A DNA stretch of 57,604 bases from positions 13,482 to 71,085 of the forward strand of contig PBCY01000020.1 in NCBI GenBank assembly GCA_002717245.1, written 5' to 3'. The stretch's first letter is position 1. Every line of letters begins with the position of its first letter. Made by a program: the position numbers and the translations under genes. The notes beneath the pieces were generated by a model, which worked only from the letters and a program-made list of their open reading frames with translations, searched no databases and had not been told where the DNA came from. Below are positions 1-55,205 of this stretch, in pieces. This stretch comes from Pelagibacteraceae bacterium. GTDB lineage: Bacteria > Pseudomonadota > Alphaproteobacteria > GCA-002720895.

Positions 1-347
1 ATCCCTTTTAAAGTACCCCCTTCGGCACTGTCTTTTGTTTTTTTTTCAACAGATTTTTCTTGAGGCAAAACTTTTTTTACATCAATTTTTTTTTTAATTT
101 TTTTTTTAGCTTTTTTTTTAAGTTCTTTAATTTCAGGTATTTGTTTTTTTATAATTTTTTCTTTTTTAATAGATTCTTTAGGTGCCTCTTCGATATTTCC
201 AATAGCAGATAAGGTTATTGTAATTCGCTCTTCTTTTTTAAAAAGATTAATGTCAAAATCATTAAGAAAAAAAACAATGTAAACATGTAATAAAATTGAT
301 AAAAAGAAAGCAAAATTTAACGTCCAAATACTTGTTTTTTTTTCCAT
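1..347 (-). CDS. tonB: TonB-family energy transducer, N-terminal part (runs off window start)
   Basis: Not in ORF track. Read manually from ATG at 347: MEKKTSIWTLNFAFFLSILLHVYIVFF, a TM anchor with the S-x3-H motif, then a Lys-rich spacer open to position 1. Directly follows exbB-exbD-exbD. Confidence 0.8.
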   Translation of the reverse strand, partial: MEKKTSIWTLNFAFFLSILLHVYIVFFLNDFDINLFKKEERITITLSAIGNIEEAPKESIKKEKIIKKQIPEIKELKKKAKKKIKKKIDVKKVLPQEKSVEKKTKDSAEGGTLKG

Positions 348-746: not shown

Positions 747-1154
747 TTATATATTTACCAATTTAATATTATCTGTACCAGCAAGCCTAACTTCTTCTAT
801 AAGTCTTATTACATTTTGTACAGGAATTTTTTTATGACTTTTAATTAAAATAGTTTTTTTTGAATCGTTTTTAATACTATTAATTATTTTTCCTCTAATA
901 TTATCAATATCAATTTTTTTATTATTTAAATAAATAAAACCTTTTTCATTTAAAATTATTACAATTGTATTTTTTTTACTTTCTATCTGTATAGACTCAC
1001 TGCTATCTAAATTAACTTCTATTGTGCTTTTTTGAATAAATGAGGTTGCTAGCATAAAAAAAACAAGTAAAAGAAAAACTATATCAATTAAAGGAGTAAT
1101 ATTAATTGATATTAATTCCTTTTCTTCTTTTTGATAAAAATTATGGGTTTTCAA
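747..1154 (-). CDS. exbD: ExbD/TolR family protein (canonical Asp)
   Basis: INITPLIDIVFLLLVFFML motif; TTG start. Confidence 0.92.
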   Translation of the reverse strand: MKTHNFYQKEEKELISINITPLIDIVFLLLVFFMLATSFIQKSTIEVNLDSSESIQIESKKNTIVIILNEKGFIYLNNKKIDIDNIRGKIINSIKNDSKKTILIKSHKKIPVQNVIRLIEEVRLAGTDNIKLVNI

Positions 1155-43941: not shown

Positions 43942-44664
43942 TTAATGTAGATTAATAGCGTCATTTAAATATAAACAAGTTAATACAGTAAATACATAAG
44001 CTTGTAAAAAAGCAACAAGAACTTCAAAAGCGGTTAAAGCAACATCAACAAATAATGGCGCAATACCAAACACTCCTAAAGAGAATATAAATCCTGCAAA
44101 AACTTTTAACATTGTATGTCCAGCCATCATATTGGCAAATAATCTTATAGATAAGCTAACTGGTCTAGATAAATAAGATATTACTTCAATTGGTATCATT
44201 AATGGCAACATTACCATCGGTACACCTTTTGGAACAAATAGTCCAAAAAATTTAAAGCCGTGCATTAATATTCCAATTATAGTTACAAACAAAAAAATGA
44301 ACATTGCTAATACAAAAGTAACAATTATATGGCTAGTAAAAGTAAAACTATAAGGTAATAAACCTAATAAATTTCCAAACAAAATAAATGTGAATAATGT
44401 AAATATAAGTGAAAAAAATTTTTGACCTTTATTTCCAATATTATCATTAATCATATTAGCGATAAATTCATAAAAAATTTCAGAAATACTTTGTAACCGG
44501 CTAGGGATAATACTTTTTTTTTTAATAGATGAAATTAATAAAATTGAAATAACAGAAATTGTTAAAATCATAAACATTGACGAATTAGTGAATGAAATAT
44601 CAATATTATTTAAATTAATAGGAAATATTTCTTTTATTTCAAATTGATGTATTGGATCTGCCAT
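43942..44664 (-). CDS. atpB: ATP synthase F0 subunit a
   Basis: DPIHQF, RLFANMMAGH, LQAYVF. Confidence 0.98.
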   Translation of the reverse strand: MADPIHQFEIKEIFPINLNNIDISFTNSSMFMILTISVISILLISSIKKKSIIPSRLQSISEIFYEFIANMINDNIGNKGQKFFSLIFTLFTFILFGNLLGLLPYSFTFTSHIIVTFVLAMFIFLFVTIIGILMHGFKFFGLFVPKGVPMVMLPLMIPIEVISYLSRPVSLSIRLFANMMAGHTMLKVFAGFIFSLGVFGIAPLFVDVALTAFEVLVAFLQAYVFTVLTCLYLNDAINLH

Positions 44665-44683
44665 AATAAAAAAAAAAAATTAT

Positions 44684-44992
44684 TTAATGCAATTTATCAT
44701 TTTTTTTTTTAAAACCAACCTCAAATCCTAATCTTTTTACAGATCTAAAAACATTAAAAATTCCTGATGCAAAACCAAGAATTAAAAAAATTATTAAAAA
44801 AATTGGTTTAGTTTGAAAATAGTTATCAAGAATAATTCCAATAACAACACCCACTATGATTGCTGAAATTAGTTCTACTCCTGATTTTAAAAAGATTCCT
44901 AAATCTTTAAAACTATTCTTTTTTTTAATTTTTTTATTTGAAAGCTTTAGGGTTTCAAGTTTTTTACCAAAATCTTTAAGTTTTTTCTTCAA
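44684..44992 (-). CDS. atpI: AtpZ/AtpI family protein
   Basis: ELISAIIVG..IG..LD.YF.TKP; first gene of the F0 cluster. Confidence 0.9.
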   Translation of the reverse strand: MKKKLKDFGKKLETLKLSNKKIKKKNSFKDLGIFLKSGVELISAIIVGVVIGIILDNYFQTKPIFLIIFLILGFASGIFNVFRSVKRLGFEVGFKKKNDKLH

Positions 44993-44997
44993 TATTT

Positions 44998-47451
44998 TTA
45001 ACTAACTTCTCTAAGTTTTTGAGCTTCTTCTAGTTTAACAGAAATTAATTTTGAAATGCCAGTTTCTGCCATTGTTACACCGTATAGCCTATCCATATGC
45101 GCCATTGTAATAGGATTATGTGTAATTAGAATAAACTTTGTTAAGGTTTCTTGATTAATTTTTTTTATTACTTTACAGTATTTTTCTATATTTATATCAT
45201 CTAATGGAGCATCAACCTCGTCTAAAACACAAATCGGAGAAGGGTTCTGTAAAAAAACTGCTAAAATTAAAGCTGTTGCTGCCATTGTTTTTTCTCCACC
45301 AGATAATAGCGATAAAGTATTCATTTTTTTTCCTGGAGGTGAAGCAAAAACTTCTAGTCCAGATAACAACGGATCTGATGATCCAACCATTTTTAAATAA
45401 GCTTTTCCACCATTAAAGAACTGTGTAAAAAGTTCTATAAAATTTTTATTTACACCATCGAAACATTTGTGGATTTTTTCACGGCCTTCTTTATTTATAT
45501 TGGAGATGGTTTCTCTTAATTTTAATATTGCTTTTTCTACATCAATTTTATCATTAATCATTTTTTCAATTTTTTTATTTGTTTCTTTAGCTTCATTCTC
45601 TGCAGCAAAATTTATTGGTCCAATATTATCAAATTTTCTTTTTTCTGAATTAAGGTCATTTTGTAAAATATTTTTTGCAGGCAAGTCTTCGATTTTAATA
45701 TCTTCTTTTTTTAAAATCTCTTCATTTAATTTTAATGAAAAATTATTTTCACTTTCTTCATAAGCATTAACTAGATCATTTTTTAAATATTCTAAATCTG
45801 TTTCTAGTCTAGTTTTCTCTTCATGGCTTTTTATTTTTTTTTCAGAATTAATTTTTATTTTCTCATCTATTTCTTTAGTTTGTTCTGGGTCAACTATAAC
45901 TTCTTTACTTAAACTATTAATTTTTTCATCTAATAATATTATTTTTGATTCTAGGTTAGAATTTTTTTTTTTTATTTCTTCTGGTTTATTTTTAAGATTT
46001 TCTAATTCATTATTTGTAAATTTTTCTCTTTCCATTAAATCATTCATATGTTTTTTAGTATCTTCAATTCTTTTGCTCCATTTGGCGTGCTCTTCTTCAA
46101 AATCAAATATTTTATCTAAATTAGTTAATTTAGAAAAATTATTCTTTATACCTGTAAAGGATGTAAATATATTATTAATTTTTTCAGAAATTATATCGAA
46201 AGTATTTTTGATTGGGTTTATTAATTCTTTATTTTTACTTATTAAGTCATTAATTTTAGAATTTAATTCATTCGATTTTGAAATAATAAATTCAATTTTT
46301 TTTATTTCATTTTCTATATCTTTTTTTAAATTAATAAAATTTTCTTTATCACTATTTTTTTCCGTATTTGATATTTTCATATCTAATTCTTTTGTTTCAT
46401 TAAATATATTTTTTTGAAGTTTAGATAATGAAAAATTTGCATCTTCAAGAAATTTTTTCTCTCTTAAAATATCTTCAGATAGTTGTGTTAATCTATTTTT
46501 TAAATTATCTTTTTGAATAGAAATTCTATTGATTTCATCTAAATTCTTTTGTTTTTCTATAAGGTGATTTTGTTTTTCAATTTTTAAATCATTTAATTCT
46601 TTATTTTTTTCAGTATTTTTACTTAAAAATTTGTTTTTTTCATTTTTATAATTTTCTAATAAGTCATCAATTTCATTTATTTCGGAATTTATTTTTTCAA
46701 GTTTTTCACTTTTTTTATTTATTTTATCTATATTGCTAATGCATCTAATTTTTATAAGTGTAATTTCTAAATTATTTATTTTATCTTTTACTGTTTTATA
46801 TTTTTCCGCTTCTTTTACTTGTTTTGAAAGTATTTTGTATTGGTCTTTATGTGTCTTAATAATATCATCCAATCTTGAAAGATTAACTTCAGCAGATTTT
46901 AATTTTAATTCAGCTTCGTGCCTTCTTGCATGTAGACCAGTAATTCCAGCTGCTTCTTCTAAAAGAATTCTTCTTTCTTCTGGTTTTGATGATATTAACC
47001 TATGCACTTGCCCTTGTGCCACAATAGAAGTTGTATCAGGGCCTGAAGACGCATCTGCAAATAATAAATGCACGTCTTTAGCTCTCACTGTTTTGTTATT
47101 TATGTAGTAGGTTGACCCTTTTTCTCTTTCAATTTTTCTTTTAATTTCTATTGTTTCGTAACTATTAAATAATTCAGGAGCTTTTTTTTTTTTATTATCT
47201 ATTGTTATTTCAATTTCAGCTAAATCATTTTGTGGTCTTATTGATGTTCCATTGAATATAACATCATCCATTCCTTTTCCTCGCATTTCTTTAGGTGATG
47301 TTTCACCCATTATCCATTTAAGAGCATCTACTATGTTTGATTTTCCACATCCATTTGGTCCAACAATACCAGTTAAGCCTTTTTCTATATTTAATTCAGT
47401 TTTATCAACAAATGATTTAAAGCCAGTTATTTTTAGTTTTGTAAAATCCAT
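44998..47451 (-). CDS. smc: Chromosome segregation protein SMC, short form without recognisable hinge
   Basis: GFKSF, GPNGCGKSN, QG Q-loop, EEAAGI, LSGGEK, LDEVDAPLD, ITHN; dsbA-smc-atpI synteny. Confidence 0.92.
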   Translation of the reverse strand: MDFTKLKITGFKSFVDKTELNIEKGLTGIVGPNGCGKSNIVDALKWIMGETSPKEMRGKGMDDVIFNGTSIRPQNDLAEIEITIDNKKKKAPELFNSYETIEIKRKIEREKGSTYYINNKTVRAKDVHLLFADASSGPDTTSIVAQGQVHRLISSKPEERRILLEEAAGITGLHARRHEAELKLKSAEVNLSRLDDIIKTHKDQYKILSKQVKEAEKYKTVKDKINNLEITLIKIRCISNIDKINKKSEKLEKINSEINEIDDLLENYKNEKNKFLSKNTEKNKELNDLKIEKQNHLIEKQKNLDEINRISIQKDNLKNRLTQLSEDILREKKFLEDANFSLSKLQKNIFNETKELDMKISNTEKNSDKENFINLKKDIENEIKKIEFIISKSNELNSKINDLISKNKELINPIKNTFDIISEKINNIFTSFTGIKNNFSKLTNLDKIFDFEEEHAKWSKRIEDTKKHMNDLMEREKFTNNELENLKNKPEEIKKKNSNLESKIILLDEKINSLSKEVIVDPEQTKEIDEKIKINSEKKIKSHEEKTRLETDLEYLKNDLVNAYEESENNFSLKLNEEILKKEDIKIEDLPAKNILQNDLNSEKRKFDNIGPINFAAENEAKETNKKIEKMINDKIDVEKAILKLRETISNINKEGREKIHKCFDGVNKNFIELFTQFFNGGKAYLKMVGSSDPLLSGLEVFASPPGKKMNTLSLLSGGEKTMAATALILAVFLQNPSPICVLDEVDAPLDDINIEKYCKVIKKINQETLTKFILITHNPITMAHMDRLYGVTMAETGISKLISVKLEEAQKLREVS

Positions 47452-47452
47452 A

Positions 47453-48046
47453 TTAATTAATTAATTTTATAATAATTTTTTCAAAATTTTCATAACTCAT
47501 TGCACTATATTTTTTTTCATTAATTATAAATGAAGGAGTAGAATTTATATTATATTTTTCTTCAGCTAGAGTTCTTGTTTTTATTATCTCATCAACTAAT
47601 TTCTCATCTGTGAAGCATGAGTTAATTTTATCTTCCTTTAACCCTGCAAGCTTGCCAATATTTGTAAGTTTTTCTATAAATGAGTCATCATTTGATATCC
47701 ATTTTTTTTGAGTATTTAGAATCAATTTAACAAAATCAAAATATTTTTCTTTAGGAGCACATTTAGCAAGAACCGATGCAAATAACGCTTGTTTATCTAA
47801 AGGAAAATCTCTATAAATAAATTTAATTTTATTTGTATCAATAAAATTCTTTTTTATTTCTGGATAAATTTCTTTATGAAAAGTAGCACAATGATTACAT
47901 GTCATTGACGCATATTCAATTATTATTACTTTTGCTTCTGCGTTTCCTACAAATGCTTCATTTTCTGTTTTTGCATTAGAAATTTGTGATTTTGAGAAAA
48001 CAATTAAAATTAATATAATTAAATATTTGCAAATATTGTATTTCAT
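47453..48046 (-). CDS. DsbA-family thioredoxin-fold protein
   Basis: EYASMTCNHCA, RDFPLD, STPSF; signal peptide. Confidence 0.92.
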   Translation of the reverse strand: MKYNICKYLIILILIVFSKSQISNAKTENEAFVGNAEAKVIIIEYASMTCNHCATFHKEIYPEIKKNFIDTNKIKFIYRDFPLDKQALFASVLAKCAPKEKYFDFVKLILNTQKKWISNDDSFIEKLTNIGKLAGLKEDKINSCFTDEKLVDEIIKTRTLAEEKYNINSTPSFIINEKKYSAMSYENFEKIIIKLIN

Positions 48047-48112: not shown

Positions 48113-48574
48113 CTAATCAAATAAAGTTTTGTTTAGTCTTTTCAAAGCATTTTTTAAAGAATTTTTTTTTAATTTATTAACTTCTTTTAAGTCTATTTTT
48201 TTTTTATTTTTTTTTACAAATTCTTTTTTTTTATAGTTATTTTCTACTTTAAAATCTTGTACTATGCTAATTTTGCTTATGGCTTTGTAACCAAAGTACT
48301 GGTTTAACTTTTCAATAATTTCTTCATTTTTAAACTCGATTTCCATTGATTTACCACGAGATGTTTTTAAGAAGATAATTCCATTTGAATTATTAATATT
48401 TTGAAAAGAAACTTTAATTGGCCAACAAAATTCTGCAATGTTATTTCCAATAATTTTTTTCCAATTTTTTATTAATGAAATTTCAATAAAATTTTTTTCT
48501 TTAACTTTTTTATCAATAATTTTAGGAAGACTACTACTAATTTTTTTAAAATAACTTTGTTTTCTTTCTTTCAT
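48113..48574 (-). CDS. DUF721 / DciA-family protein
   Basis: W..IIG..IA..C.P.K and IIEKLNQYFGYKAISKI.IVQ; usual neighbour of dsbA-smc. Confidence 0.85.
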   Translation of the reverse strand: MKERKQSYFKKISSSLPKIIDKKVKEKNFIEISLIKNWKKIIGNNIAEFCWPIKVSFQNINNSNGIIFLKTSRGKSMEIEFKNEEIIEKLNQYFGYKAISKISIVQDFKVENNYKKKEFVKKNKKKIDLKEVNKLKKNSLKNALKRLNKTLFD

Positions 48575-48579
48575 TTAAC

Positions 48580-49665
48580 CTAAGTTAATTGCAATTCTGA
48601 TCTAATTTTTTCTCTTAGAATATCTATACTTATAGAATTATTTTTTTCATTCTTATACCAAAATGTCCAACCGTTACATGATGGTAAATTTAATAAGTTA
48701 GCTGCAACACTATGTATTGACCCCTTAAAATTTTCTGCAATTAATGAGCCGTCAACTCTTACTTTTGCATACCACTTTTTATTTATATCATGAAGTAAAT
48801 CACCTGGTTTTATTAAATTAAATTCTATTAAATTTCCAAAAGGAATTCTTTTTTGTTGTCTTTTTTCATTAACTTTAAGCATATTTTTATTTTTTAAAGG
48901 TTTAATTAAATCAATTCTTTTTTTTGCGAATTTAATATATTTTTTTTCACTTTCTATTCCTATGAATTTTCTATTATATTTTTTTGCCACAGAGCCAATA
49001 GTTCCAGTTCCAAAAAAAGGATCTAAAACTACATCTCCAGGATTAGTTACAGATAATAAAATTCTAGCAATTAAAGATTCAGGTTTTTGTGTAGGGTGTA
49101 CTTTTTTGCCTTTATATTTTAATCTTTCAGAACCATTACATATTGGAAAAGTCCAGTCACTTCTCATTTGTAAGTCATCATTGAGAGATTTCATAAGATT
49201 ATAATTAAATGTATATTTTGAATTTTTATTTTTTGAACACCAAATTAAAGTTTCATGAGCATTTGAGAATCTAGTACCTCTAAAATTTGGCATAGGATTA
49301 GTTTTTATCCAAACAATGTCATTTAAAATCCAGAAATTTAAGTCCTGCAATATTTTTCCAATTCTAAAAATATTGTGGTATGTTCCTATTACCCATATTG
49401 TTCCATTATCTTTTAGTAATCTTTTTGCTGAAGATAACCATTCTTTTGTAAAATTATCATATTTTTCAAAACTTTCGAATTTATCCCATTTATTTCTTAC
49501 ACCATTTACTTTAGATTGGTCAGGCCTTTTTAAATCTTTTTCTAATTGAAGATTATATGGAGGGTCAGCAAATATTAAATCAACTGATTTATCAGGTAAT
49601 TTTTTCATTTCTTTAATACAATTACCTAAATATATTTTATTAAGTGCTAGATTTTTAATTTTCAT
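48580..49665 (-). CDS. ccrM: CcrM-type adenine DNA methyltransferase (GANTC)
   Basis: FADPPYNLQL, NPMPNFRG.RF.NAHET, QMRSDW, HPTQKPE, DPFFGTGT, C-terminal SIH..CNGWTFW; follows rnhB; no restriction enzyme nearby. Confidence 0.93.
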   Translation of the reverse strand: MKIKNLALNKIYLGNCIKEMKKLPDKSVDLIFADPPYNLQLEKDLKRPDQSKVNGVRNKWDKFESFEKYDNFTKEWLSSAKRLLKDNGTIWVIGTYHNIFRIGKILQDLNFWILNDIVWIKTNPMPNFRGTRFSNAHETLIWCSKNKNSKYTFNYNLMKSLNDDLQMRSDWTFPICNGSERLKYKGKKVHPTQKPESLIARILLSVTNPGDVVLDPFFGTGTIGSVAKKYNRKFIGIESEKKYIKFAKKRIDLIKPLKNKNMLKVNEKRQQKRIPFGNLIEFNLIKPGDLLHDINKKWYAKVRVDGSLIAENFKGSIHSVAANLLNLPSCNGWTFWYKNEKNNSISIDILREKIRSELQLT

Positions 49666-55130: not shown

Positions 55131-55205
55131 TGGGGCGTCGCCAAGTGGTAAGGCACGAGTTTTTGGTACTCGCATTCGCAGGTTCGAATCCTGCCGCCCC
55201 AGCCA
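55131..55205 (+). tRNA. tRNA-Gln (anticodon TTG)
   Basis: Acceptor stem TGGGGCG/CGCCCCA (U1-A72), anticodon arm CGAGT-TT TTG GT-ACTCG, GGTTCGAATCC T arm, encoded CCA. Confidence 0.97.

Follow-up and report, generated by a model that had tools for sequence, protein, structure and literature searches.

The stretch of DNA analysed here (57,604 nucleotides, hereafter called the window) comes from a genome with a base composition of approximately 24-26% G+C and contains an smc gene between a dsbA-like gene and the genes atpI and atpB (Table 1). The product of this gene, a Smc protein of 817 amino acids (aa), combines a complete ATPase head with an arm that lacks a hinge. The hinge is, by textbook knowledge, a defining part of every SMC protein. 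A preliminary description of this DNA, made from the sequence alone, had reported an uninterrupted open reading frame (ORF) of 817 aa with complete head motifs. We verified the ORF and all six motifs of the SMC-type ABC head, which are split between the N and C termini of the protein and are intact, and the positions given earlier for the two edges of the central segment were correct (A338, codon 46438-46440; E452, codon 46096-46098). The protein scored 695.6 bits with the equivalog model TIGR02168 (SMC_prok_B, NCBIfam) and thereby passed the cut-off of 567.35, the match falling into two pieces that cover positions 2-438 and 774-1181 of the 1181-position model. The archaeal-type Smc model remained far under its cut-off. 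A Pfam scan returned SMC_N (162.5 bits) together with related P-loop families, and a profile search of the PDB matched the Smc head chains 3zgx and 5xg3 over residues 3-220. In a BLASTP comparison with an SMC protein of 1154 aa, residues 1-345 aligned with residues 2-346 of the longer protein (48% identity) and residues 363-815 with residues 703-1152 (36% identity). By sequence score, tree and gene position, the 817-aa Smc is the orthologue of alphaproteobacterial smc.

The central segment had been described as containing one Gly, one Pro and no G-x6-G-x3-GG motif, and the protein as being devoid of a Rad50-type CxxC motif. The counts hold for the 113 residues from 339 to 451 (G434 and P413), and neither G-x6-G-x3-GG nor CxxC was present when the entire protein was searched; its Cys residues are located at positions 35, 237, 663, 741 and 759, with none within 238-662. 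As the preliminary description had proposed, the protein was scanned for the Pfam family SMC_hinge (PF06470), and no match was obtained at E<=1. However, this miss is weak evidence because PF06470 is insensitive in Alphaproteobacteria: it was detected in merely 20 of 61 related genomes, with weak E-values, although many or most of the 61 have a full-length SMC. Lineage-specific profiles were therefore built. The first of these, a custom hinge profile of 156 positions derived from 29 full-length alphaproteobacterial SMCs, matched 20 of 20 held-out full-length SMCs (E-values from 4e-16 to 7e-65) and 60 of 60 ORFs from named records outside the Pelagibacteraceae, which brings the positive controls to 80 of 80. 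With the same profile, none of eight forms of the 817-aa Smc family, the query included, gave a hinge (six had no match, two had E-values of 2-3.5 with negative bit scores). A profile search of the PDB with the family profile returned head and arm chains only, but it is uninformative with respect to the hinge, since the 1154-aa full-length control likewise returned no hinge-only chain.

We also looked for a hinge elsewhere in the genome. Among all ORFs of at least 40 aa, the custom profile found nothing better than E 3.1 over 19 residues, and a second hinge profile (A4, 43 rows) pointed to no candidate either. When a full-length SMC served as query, the matches to the genome were confined to its residues 3-346 and 771-1152, both of which fall within smc itself (44998-47451). 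A full-length smc elsewhere, which the preliminary description had named among the observations that would refute its claim, was thus not found in the 90%-complete genome, and neither was a free hinge. Moreover, a hinge cannot fit into the protein because only 131 residues separate the arm landmarks described below, as compared to the 156 residues of a hinge. These data show that the hinge has been lost, and that the 817-aa Smc, an orthologue in terms of descent, does not have the architecture of a canonical SMC.

To define the size and position of the loss, we used an alignment of 48 rows (A2), consisting of 19 short forms and 29 full-length relatives of 1152-1158 aa, and a second alignment of 11 rows. 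Two residues, D327 in the N strand of the arm (46471-46473) and W458 in the C strand (46078-46080), are invariant in all 59 aligned rows (48 of 48 in A2), and E454 is retained in at least 90% of the 48 A2 rows, full-length SMCs among them. In every row the distance from the N-terminus to D327 is 319-327 residues, and that from W458 to the C-terminus is 353-364 residues. The interval between the two landmarks spans 467-468 residues in 29 of 29 full-length relatives versus 131-134 residues in 18 of 18 members of the 817-aa Smc family (131 in the query, which is counted among the 18). The entire length difference therefore lies between D327 and W458 and amounts to an internal loss of 336 residues. 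In the full-length proteins this interval is composed of approximately 168 N-strand residues, the hinge of 156 residues and approximately 144 C-strand residues, whereas in the 817-aa Smc approximately 84 and 47 residues flank the turn. As judged from the alignments, the 336 lost residues are the hinge (~156) plus about 84-97 residues of each adjoining arm strand, and the ancestral length has been preserved in the head, in the joint and in the two thirds of the arm that are nearest to the head. According to the preliminary description, several hundred residues including the hinge had been replaced by a short helical apex. The loss of the hinge and of 336 residues, and the short helical apex that is left, agree with this view, but 'replaced' is too strong a word, since the apex is a remnant of the ancestral arm in which E454 and W458 are kept and the lengths of the flanks are unchanged.

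The genome is represented by an assembly of 27 contigs with 90% completeness and 6% contamination, a state that could in principle favour an assembly artefact or a decaying copy, both of which had been mentioned at the outset as readings that might undo the observation. The independent sequence data make this explanation practically negligible. In a protein search clustered at 90% identity, the family appeared as 66 independent clusters, most of which (51) have 803 aa and the others 817 aa (9) or 819-820 aa (6), plus 10 further pieces of 449-675 aa. These sequences stem from ENA, JGI, NCBI, Tara and Logan. Relatives sharing more than 68% identity never exceeded 820 aa, and the next matches were full-length SMCs. 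The distribution of orthologue lengths, for which the preliminary description had called, is thus confined to 803-820 aa for these clusters. The order to which the window's genome belongs comprises 11 genomes in our collection, all reported as less than 90% complete; the 10 others contributed seven complete, stop-free frames (806-822 aa) and two copies cut by contig ends, while one genome (54% complete) contributed none. At the DNA level, 19 runs contained at least 94% of the sampled words of positions 45800-46800, and six of these runs name a study, three studies in total. A single contig from run X2 extends over 45777-46989 with one difference and no gap, and so covers the segment 46095-46440 for which the preliminary description had asked for read support; contigs from runs X1 and X18, which belong to other studies, tile the same stretch. 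The ratio of nonsynonymous to synonymous substitutions (dN/dS) was 0.06-0.21 when calculated over the whole gene and 0.08-0.39 over residues 361-462; the least diverged pair had values of 0.13 (gene) and 0.19 (central module). The smc gene is under purifying selection, and it is neither an artefact nor a decaying copy. As a separate observation, the summed contig depth of runs X1 and X2 in window positions 45929-46022 was 10-50 times that of the neighbouring bins, probably due to AT-rich low-complexity words that are common to other organisms in the metagenomes and not to a property of smc.

The genes for the partner proteins of Smc that the preliminary description had suggested to look for were all found in the genome. 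ScpA (242 aa, 55.2 bits) and ScpB (178 aa, 151.8 bits) are encoded by adjacent genes on contig C15, and a ParB protein with a GERRLRA box is encoded next to ParA. A parS-like site with one mismatch is located approximately 3 kb from parB, and a second site with two mismatches lies 430 bp further (C4:24910-24925 and C4:25342-25357). Beyond these, the assembly of 1.14 Mb contains only two parS-like sites, each with two mismatches, and a search with the reversed pattern as control gave no occurrence at up to two mismatches. Within the order, ScpB and ParB were each detected in 8 of the 11 genomes, the misses being genomes that are 54-73% complete. No match was found in the genome for the MukB-type N-terminal domain PF04310 at E<=1, or above the cut-off for the SbcC/MksB-type Walker B family (SbcC_Walker_B). 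The remaining SMC_N matches of the genome are RecF (216.6 bits versus a cut-off of 172) and ABC ATPases, and no RecN was found among them in this 90%-complete assembly. One SMC_N match of 580 aa on contig C14 was considered as a candidate RecN and rejected, as it is an MsbA-like ABC exporter. The 817-aa Smc is therefore the sole condensin-type SMC found in the genome.

The gene position is also that of an smc orthologue. Among 62 alphaproteobacterial smc loci, full-length and hinge-less genes alike, a dsbA-like homologue is present just upstream of smc in 50 and atpB is present downstream in 31, so that the order dsbA-like, smc, atpI/atpB represents the usual alphaproteobacterial locus. These observations bear on the idea that the short protein has changed its job and now acts as a RecN-like or Rad50-like ATPase in repair or tethering, no longer being a condensin. 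In its favour are the composition of the protein, a head and a coiled coil without a hinge as in RecN and Rad50, and the absence of RecN from the SMC_N matches. Nevertheless, we regard this idea as very improbable: the recN model (TIGR00634) and the best Rad50 model gave 56 and 46.9 bits, well short of their cut-offs of 407.85 and 1087, respectively, there is no CxxC motif, ScpA and ScpB have been retained in the genome and ScpB in most of its order, the gene occupies the orthologous smc position, and the heads group with alphaproteobacterial Smc in both of our trees.

Heptads, matched breaks and paired deletions in the sequence are compatible with a long, antiparallel and intramolecular arm with a head-proximal joint, the arm being shorter (~240 residues per strand) than that of canonical Smc (~330). 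Counted from approximately residue 170, the estimated arm start, the strand length of ~240 residues compares with ~325-335 residues in the full-length relatives. Stretches with weak heptads correspond between the two strands (N 269-303 with C 514-548, and N 346-373 with C 444-478), with residue sums of approximately 820. In 5 of 18 aligned rows, relatives of 803 aa lack one heptad in each strand (residues 291-297 and 503-509), and such a paired loss would be expected if both strands pair. P413 is the sole Pro of the central region, indels of 2-3 residues occur in the family at the turn, and conservation in the central region is lowest in the windows centred at 401-421. We placed the turn at approximately residues 408-413 because P413, these indels, a change of heptad register, the low conservation and the matched breaks (sum of approximately 820) coincide there. 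An apex at residue 400, as derived from the paired heptad deletions (sum of 800), was considered and dropped in favour of residues 408-413, to which the matched breaks point together with P413, the change of register and the indels; heptad-sized deletions need not be exactly opposite one another. We infer that residues 372-409 and 414-451 would form a hairpin of 38 residues per strand, which would start beyond the polar break at residues 361-371, opposite EEEHAKW (452-458). In the descending helix of this hairpin, hydrophobic residues occupy all a/d positions in the windows 409-443 (occupancy 1.0, and 0.90 family-wide), and conservation peaks in the windows centred at 431-451. The hydrophobic core of the distal hairpin is the most regular and best conserved of the whole arm.

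The paired heptad deletions and matched breaks are compatible with pairing within one chain as well as with antiparallel pairing between two chains, which would produce a long rod with a head at each end and no folded-back hairpin. The coiled-coil arms of canonical SMC proteins are intramolecular. Together with P413, the indels of 2-3 residues and the register change at 402-413, which suggest a loop and not a continuous helix, this makes the two-headed rod hardly credible. Furthermore, each head of such a rod would be built from two chains, and the heads would be too distant from one another to sandwich ATP, yet the motifs for head engagement are all conserved.

Table 1. Features of the smc locus in the window. 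Residue numbers refer to the 817-aa Smc; the boundaries of head and arm segments are estimates, and heptads were located with a simple home-made scan.
Feature	Residues	Window positions	Strand	Remarks
smc ORF	1-817	44998..47451	(-)	ATG, 817 codons, stop; no internal stop; hinge-less short-armed Smc
N-terminal head half	1-170	46942..47451	(-)	Walker A, Q-loop; Pfam, PDB profile; edge at residue 170 estimated
Walker A, GPNGCGKS	31-38	47338..47361	(-)	
Q-loop, AQG	145-147		(-)	
N-terminal arm strand	171-360	46372..46941	(-)	D327 included; weak-heptad stretch 269-303; heptad scan
Heptad without counterpart in 803-aa relatives	291-297	46561..46581	(-)	Missing from 5 of 18 aligned rows
Polar break of N strand, SNTEKNSDKEN	361-371	46339..46371	(-)	Zero hydrophobic residues
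Distal hairpin, ascending helix (predicted)	372-409	46225..46338	(-)	Continuous 3-4 hydrophobic repeat; family a/d occupancy 0.73
Tip loop (proposed), LINP	410-413	46213..46224	(-)	P413, 2-residue indels, register change 402-409, low conservation; inferred from sequence
Distal hairpin, descending helix (predicted)	414-451	46099..46212	(-)	6 aromatic residues; most regular heptads of the arm
EEEHAKW	452-458	46078..46098	(-)	W458 is the C-arm landmark common to full-length SMCs
C-terminal arm strand	459-610	45622..46077	(-)	Weak-heptad stretch 514-548 (with P522); joint region near GPINFAAENE
Second heptad missing from 803-aa relatives	503-509	45925..45945	(-)	Absent in the same 5 of 18 rows; partner of the 291-297 deletion
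C-terminal head half	611-817	45001..45621	(-)	Signature, Walker B, D-loop, H-loop; Pfam, PDB profile
Signature, LSGGE	716-720	45292..45306	(-)	
Walker B, ICVLDE, and D-loop, DEVDAPLD	740-745 and 744-751	45199..45234	(-)	Coordinates of both together
H-loop, ITH	776-778		(-)	
dsbA-like thioredoxin gene		47453..48046	(-)	Directly upstream of smc; Pfam Thioredoxin_4, E 4.4e-40
atpI-like gene (44684-44992) and atpB (43942-44664)		43942..44992	(-)	Directly downstream of smc; Pfam
DciA-family gene (helicase loader)		48113-48574	(-)	PF05258, E 1.4e-10; upstream of the dsbA-like gene
CcrM-like N6/N4 DNA methylase gene, C-terminal RAMA domain		48580-49665	(-)	Upstream of the dsbA-like gene

Based on the present data, we consider it probable that this Smc, whose hinge has been lost by internal deletion, acts as the sole condensin of the bacterium, and we propose that a hairpin at the end of each arm may hold the dimer together. 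According to this explanation, each chain would ascend an arm strand of approximately 240 residues, turn at residues 408-413 and return, the last 38 residues on either side forming a tight helical hairpin beyond a conserved interruption of the coiled coil. Smc would be loaded by ParB at the single cluster of parS-like sites, of which one is firm and one weaker, and together with ScpAB it would extrude DNA loops. SMC complexes have been described as a loop-extruding core with an elbow-to-hinge 'periphery', the hinge being a gate for single-stranded linkers that enables the bypass of obstacles (PMC12647877). The 817-aa Smc could be the natural counterpart of an engineered 'core' SMC that has no such periphery, and it would then have no gate for single strands by which to pass transcription obstacles and other SMC complexes. 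The arm of ~240 residues would fall into one of the length classes that Smc proteins tolerate, whether natural or engineered, since natural arm lengths have modes at 238 and 341 residues and engineered arms of 253-267 residues are functional (PMC5344682). The least certain step is the closure of the ring. A RecN-like tip contact, as suggested in the preliminary description, is one putative mode of dimerisation; we propose that the distal hairpins, together with arm-to-arm contacts of the kind described for the Smc rod (PMC5526789), may hold the dimer in place of the hinge.

Several points weigh against this explanation. The position of the turn and any contact within the dimer have been read from sequence alone. 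Conservation within the protein reaches its minimum in the tip loop, the outer faces of the hairpin do not exceed those of other arm segments in this respect, and the number of additional hydrophobic positions in the hairpin is modest. A contact at the tip seems to be required, because hinge dimerisation is essential in Bacillus subtilis, where its abolishment renders Smc inactive (PMC5344682), and because the JET core, from which the elbow-to-hinge segment has been removed, acts on naked DNA only if its arms are artificially cross-linked, and even then does not bypass obstacles (PMC12647877). In addition, dS is near saturation in most of the pairs compared, a second SMC or a free hinge may be encoded in the part of the genome that is missing from the assembly (90% complete, 6% contamination), and the evidence for expression is weak, as it consists of three exact pieces of the gene in one metatranscriptome library (run X20), which possibly derive from DNA.

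The poor conservation of the tip loop and the outer faces, and the modest number of extra hydrophobic residues, also keep in view an open clamp without closure at the tip. In such a clamp, hinge-less hairpins would be joined only by ScpA, by the ATP-engaged heads and perhaps by a loose zipping of the arms, and the chromosome would still be organised or segregated although the top is not closed. It would suit this arrangement that the distal hairpin has no specially conserved outer surface, and that a search with the central 200 residues detected no relatives beyond their own family: among 1.84 billion representatives we found six matches, namely four members of the family and two repetitive coiled-coil proteins with 21% identity. 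The requirement for ring closure in the JET core and for hinge dimerisation in B. subtilis speaks against the open clamp, as do the regularity and conservation of the hydrophobic core of the hairpin, and we consider it unlikely. It is equally doubtful that in both the 817-aa Smc lineage and SAR11 the SMC dimer is held by the kleisin, head engagement and reversible arm zipping, without any dedicated closure at the arm tip. If this were true, condensins of bacteria that are among the most abundant in the ocean could function without a topologically closed SMC ring.

As the preliminary description had suggested, short SMC proteins also occur in SAR11: the hinge is absent from all nine SMC ORFs of named Pelagibacteraceae records, among which one complete genome is represented. 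Two lengths are found in this group, approximately 809-812 aa (L087, L099, L102) and approximately 855 aa (L084, L100, L101, L103, L113, L115). The longer form has approximately 46 extra apex residues (173 versus 127 between the landmarks), which include a Gly-Pro-containing stretch and, as far as their sequence tells, may form a small apex module. To see how widespread hinge loss is, we inspected 301 alphaproteobacterial genomes, all at least 90% complete apart from the window's own. An Smc match at E<=1e-60 was present in 210 of these and a hinge match in 203; G225, an unpublished genome that entered the analysis for counting only, has a normal SMC with a hinge. The seven Smc-positive, hinge-negative genomes are the window's own; two single-contig genomes of family f113 (G122 and G251), with hinge-less frames of 809-810 aa and no hinge match anywhere in either; and four genomes (G027, G059, G159 and G261) with merely head pieces at contig ends, which are hence uninformative on the hinge. 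Two other families with small genomes retain the hinge, their SMC proteins measuring 865 aa (G040; L012:2696-5293) and at least 877 aa (G195; L019:1-2631). These two keep nearly the entire hinge (profile E-values of 1e-24 and 1e-28, respectively) on shortened arms, with 182 residues between the D and W landmarks in G040 versus 467 in full-length proteins, which corresponds to arms of approximately 200 residues. To judge by their sequences, they represent a different route to a short SMC; their designation as 'half hinges' was rejected, since the hinge profile covers its positions 17-152 in them. The suggestion that the short Smc is a shared feature of streamlined marine genomes is thus correct as far as SAR11 is concerned, but too broad, since among the 301 genomes only the window's own and those of f113 had complete hinge-less genes, and the two small-genome families just mentioned have kept the hinge.

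The short SMCs of SAR11 and f113 resemble the 817-aa Smc in being hinge-less, in being colinear with it from end to end and in having the same gene neighbourhood, and their short forms have 127-128 residues between the landmarks as compared to 131. However, they belong to a different taxonomic order, are only 36-40% identical to the 817-aa Smc, full-length SMCs being at least as similar to it, and have an apex sequence that is not detectably related. In a tree of the heads only, f113 is the sister of the named Pelagibacteraceae with a support of 100 in the Shimodaira-Hasegawa-like approximate likelihood ratio test (SH-aLRT). In both trees, the 817-aa family and the SAR11-type forms form a weakly supported group with one full-length protein, that of G183, which has a long branch (SH-aLRT 87 and 83). 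A constraint of all hinge-less forms to one clade was not rejected by the approximately unbiased test (p-AU 0.80), and the log-likelihood of the constrained tree even exceeded that of the quick free search by 18.8 units; the constrained group had been chosen after the tree was seen, and base composition and long branches may draw these rows together. A single ancestral loss of the hinge is plausible on these trees, and two parallel losses are also conceivable, since the full-length G183 protein sits in the same weak group. Two side observations concern other SMC lengths. Frames of 1385-1523 aa surround smc in G037, G304 (family f28), G133, G196, G231, G249 and G300, and may correspond to the long-armed type known from Acetobacter relatives (PMC12647877) or to long upstream frames. 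The ESM Atlas contains the sequence of the 817-aa Smc without a model, and its feature neighbours there are other SMC_N clusters of 736-882 aa from several phyla, which we note as leads only.

Compared to canonical Smc-ScpAB of the B. subtilis or Caulobacter type, the 817-aa Smc is alike in its head motifs, flank lengths, ScpA and ScpB, and ParB/parS, and differs in having no hinge, in arms of ~240 instead of ~325-335 residues, and in a total length of 817 instead of 1152-1158 aa. A further comparison is with engineered B. subtilis Smc proteins. Their arms are likewise approximately 100 residues shorter and of an allowed length class, and the hinge fold is dispensable in them if the dimer is held otherwise, as by the Rad50 zinc hook, which is able to substitute for the hinge (PMC5344682). 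Nonetheless, they keep a hinge, zinc hook or disulfide as dimeriser, none of which is visible in the 817-aa Smc. The break points of the profile match (~438/774) are near those of the engineered constructs 1-438/733-1186 and 1-398/773-1186 and of the hinge fragment 400-776, and also near the end of the crystallised middle segment 246-379/793-929, if model positions are equated with B. subtilis numbering, which is an approximation. 'Naturally occurring short variants' of Smc have been mentioned (10.1101/464701), and a shortened B. subtilis Smc supports growth and gives better alignment of the chromosome arms when a single parS site is left (10.1101/2020.12.04.411900). The single parS-like cluster near parAB would fit the collision-avoiding regime of engineered Smc. 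The Rad50/SbcC and RecN proteins share with the 817-aa Smc an ABC head and a folded-back coiled coil with a small apex, but the 817-aa Smc is far under the cut-offs of these families, has no CxxC and has ScpA and ScpB as predicted partners. Loss of the hinge channel has been discussed for Wadjet II/III, MukBEF and Acetobacter Smc (PMC12647877). MukB, Wadjet II/III JetC and the Acetobacter-type Smc thus provide natural examples in which the single-strand channel is lost and hinge bypass is predicted to be lost, but in these proteins the hinge is still present and dimerises, and the arms are mostly longer, whereas the 817-aa Smc is hinge-free with shorter arms.

The preliminary description regarded the short Smc as the best candidate for an undescribed system in the window. 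This holds in so far as we found no paper on a hinge-less Smc in SAR11 or other Alphaproteobacteria, subscription journals and supplements lying outside the search. It does not hold for hinge-less SMCs in general, since a clade of these proteins without CxxC was reported in 2025 for marine Actinobacteria on the basis of ocean metagenomes, in which it is abundant, and AlphaFold models, and was judged not to be a paralogue of a normal SMC (PMC12153180). The accessible sections of that account contain no mention of Alphaproteobacteria or SAR11. By its description, the actinobacterial protein has in common with the 817-aa Smc an SMC head and coiled coil, the absence of hinge and CxxC, and the status of sole SMC; its hinge loss is presumably independent, because it belongs to a different phylum. 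Our contribution is therefore a further lineage at the level of an order together with an anatomy at the level of residues, and not a new principle. With its heads, joint, two thirds of the arm, ScpAB and ParB/parS kept, the 817-aa Smc offers a natural test of what the hinge is for: the 'periphery' has been removed naturally from the sole condensin of a free-living bacterium, and likewise in SAR11. In these natural proteins it becomes testable how a ring is closed without a hinge, and whether cells are viable without hinge bypass.

Upstream of the dsbA-like gene, the DciA-family gene and the CcrM-like methylase gene (Table 1) bring several replication and cell-cycle genes together beside smc. 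The sole Rfam match in the window above the gathering score is a tRNA gene at 55131-55202 (+).

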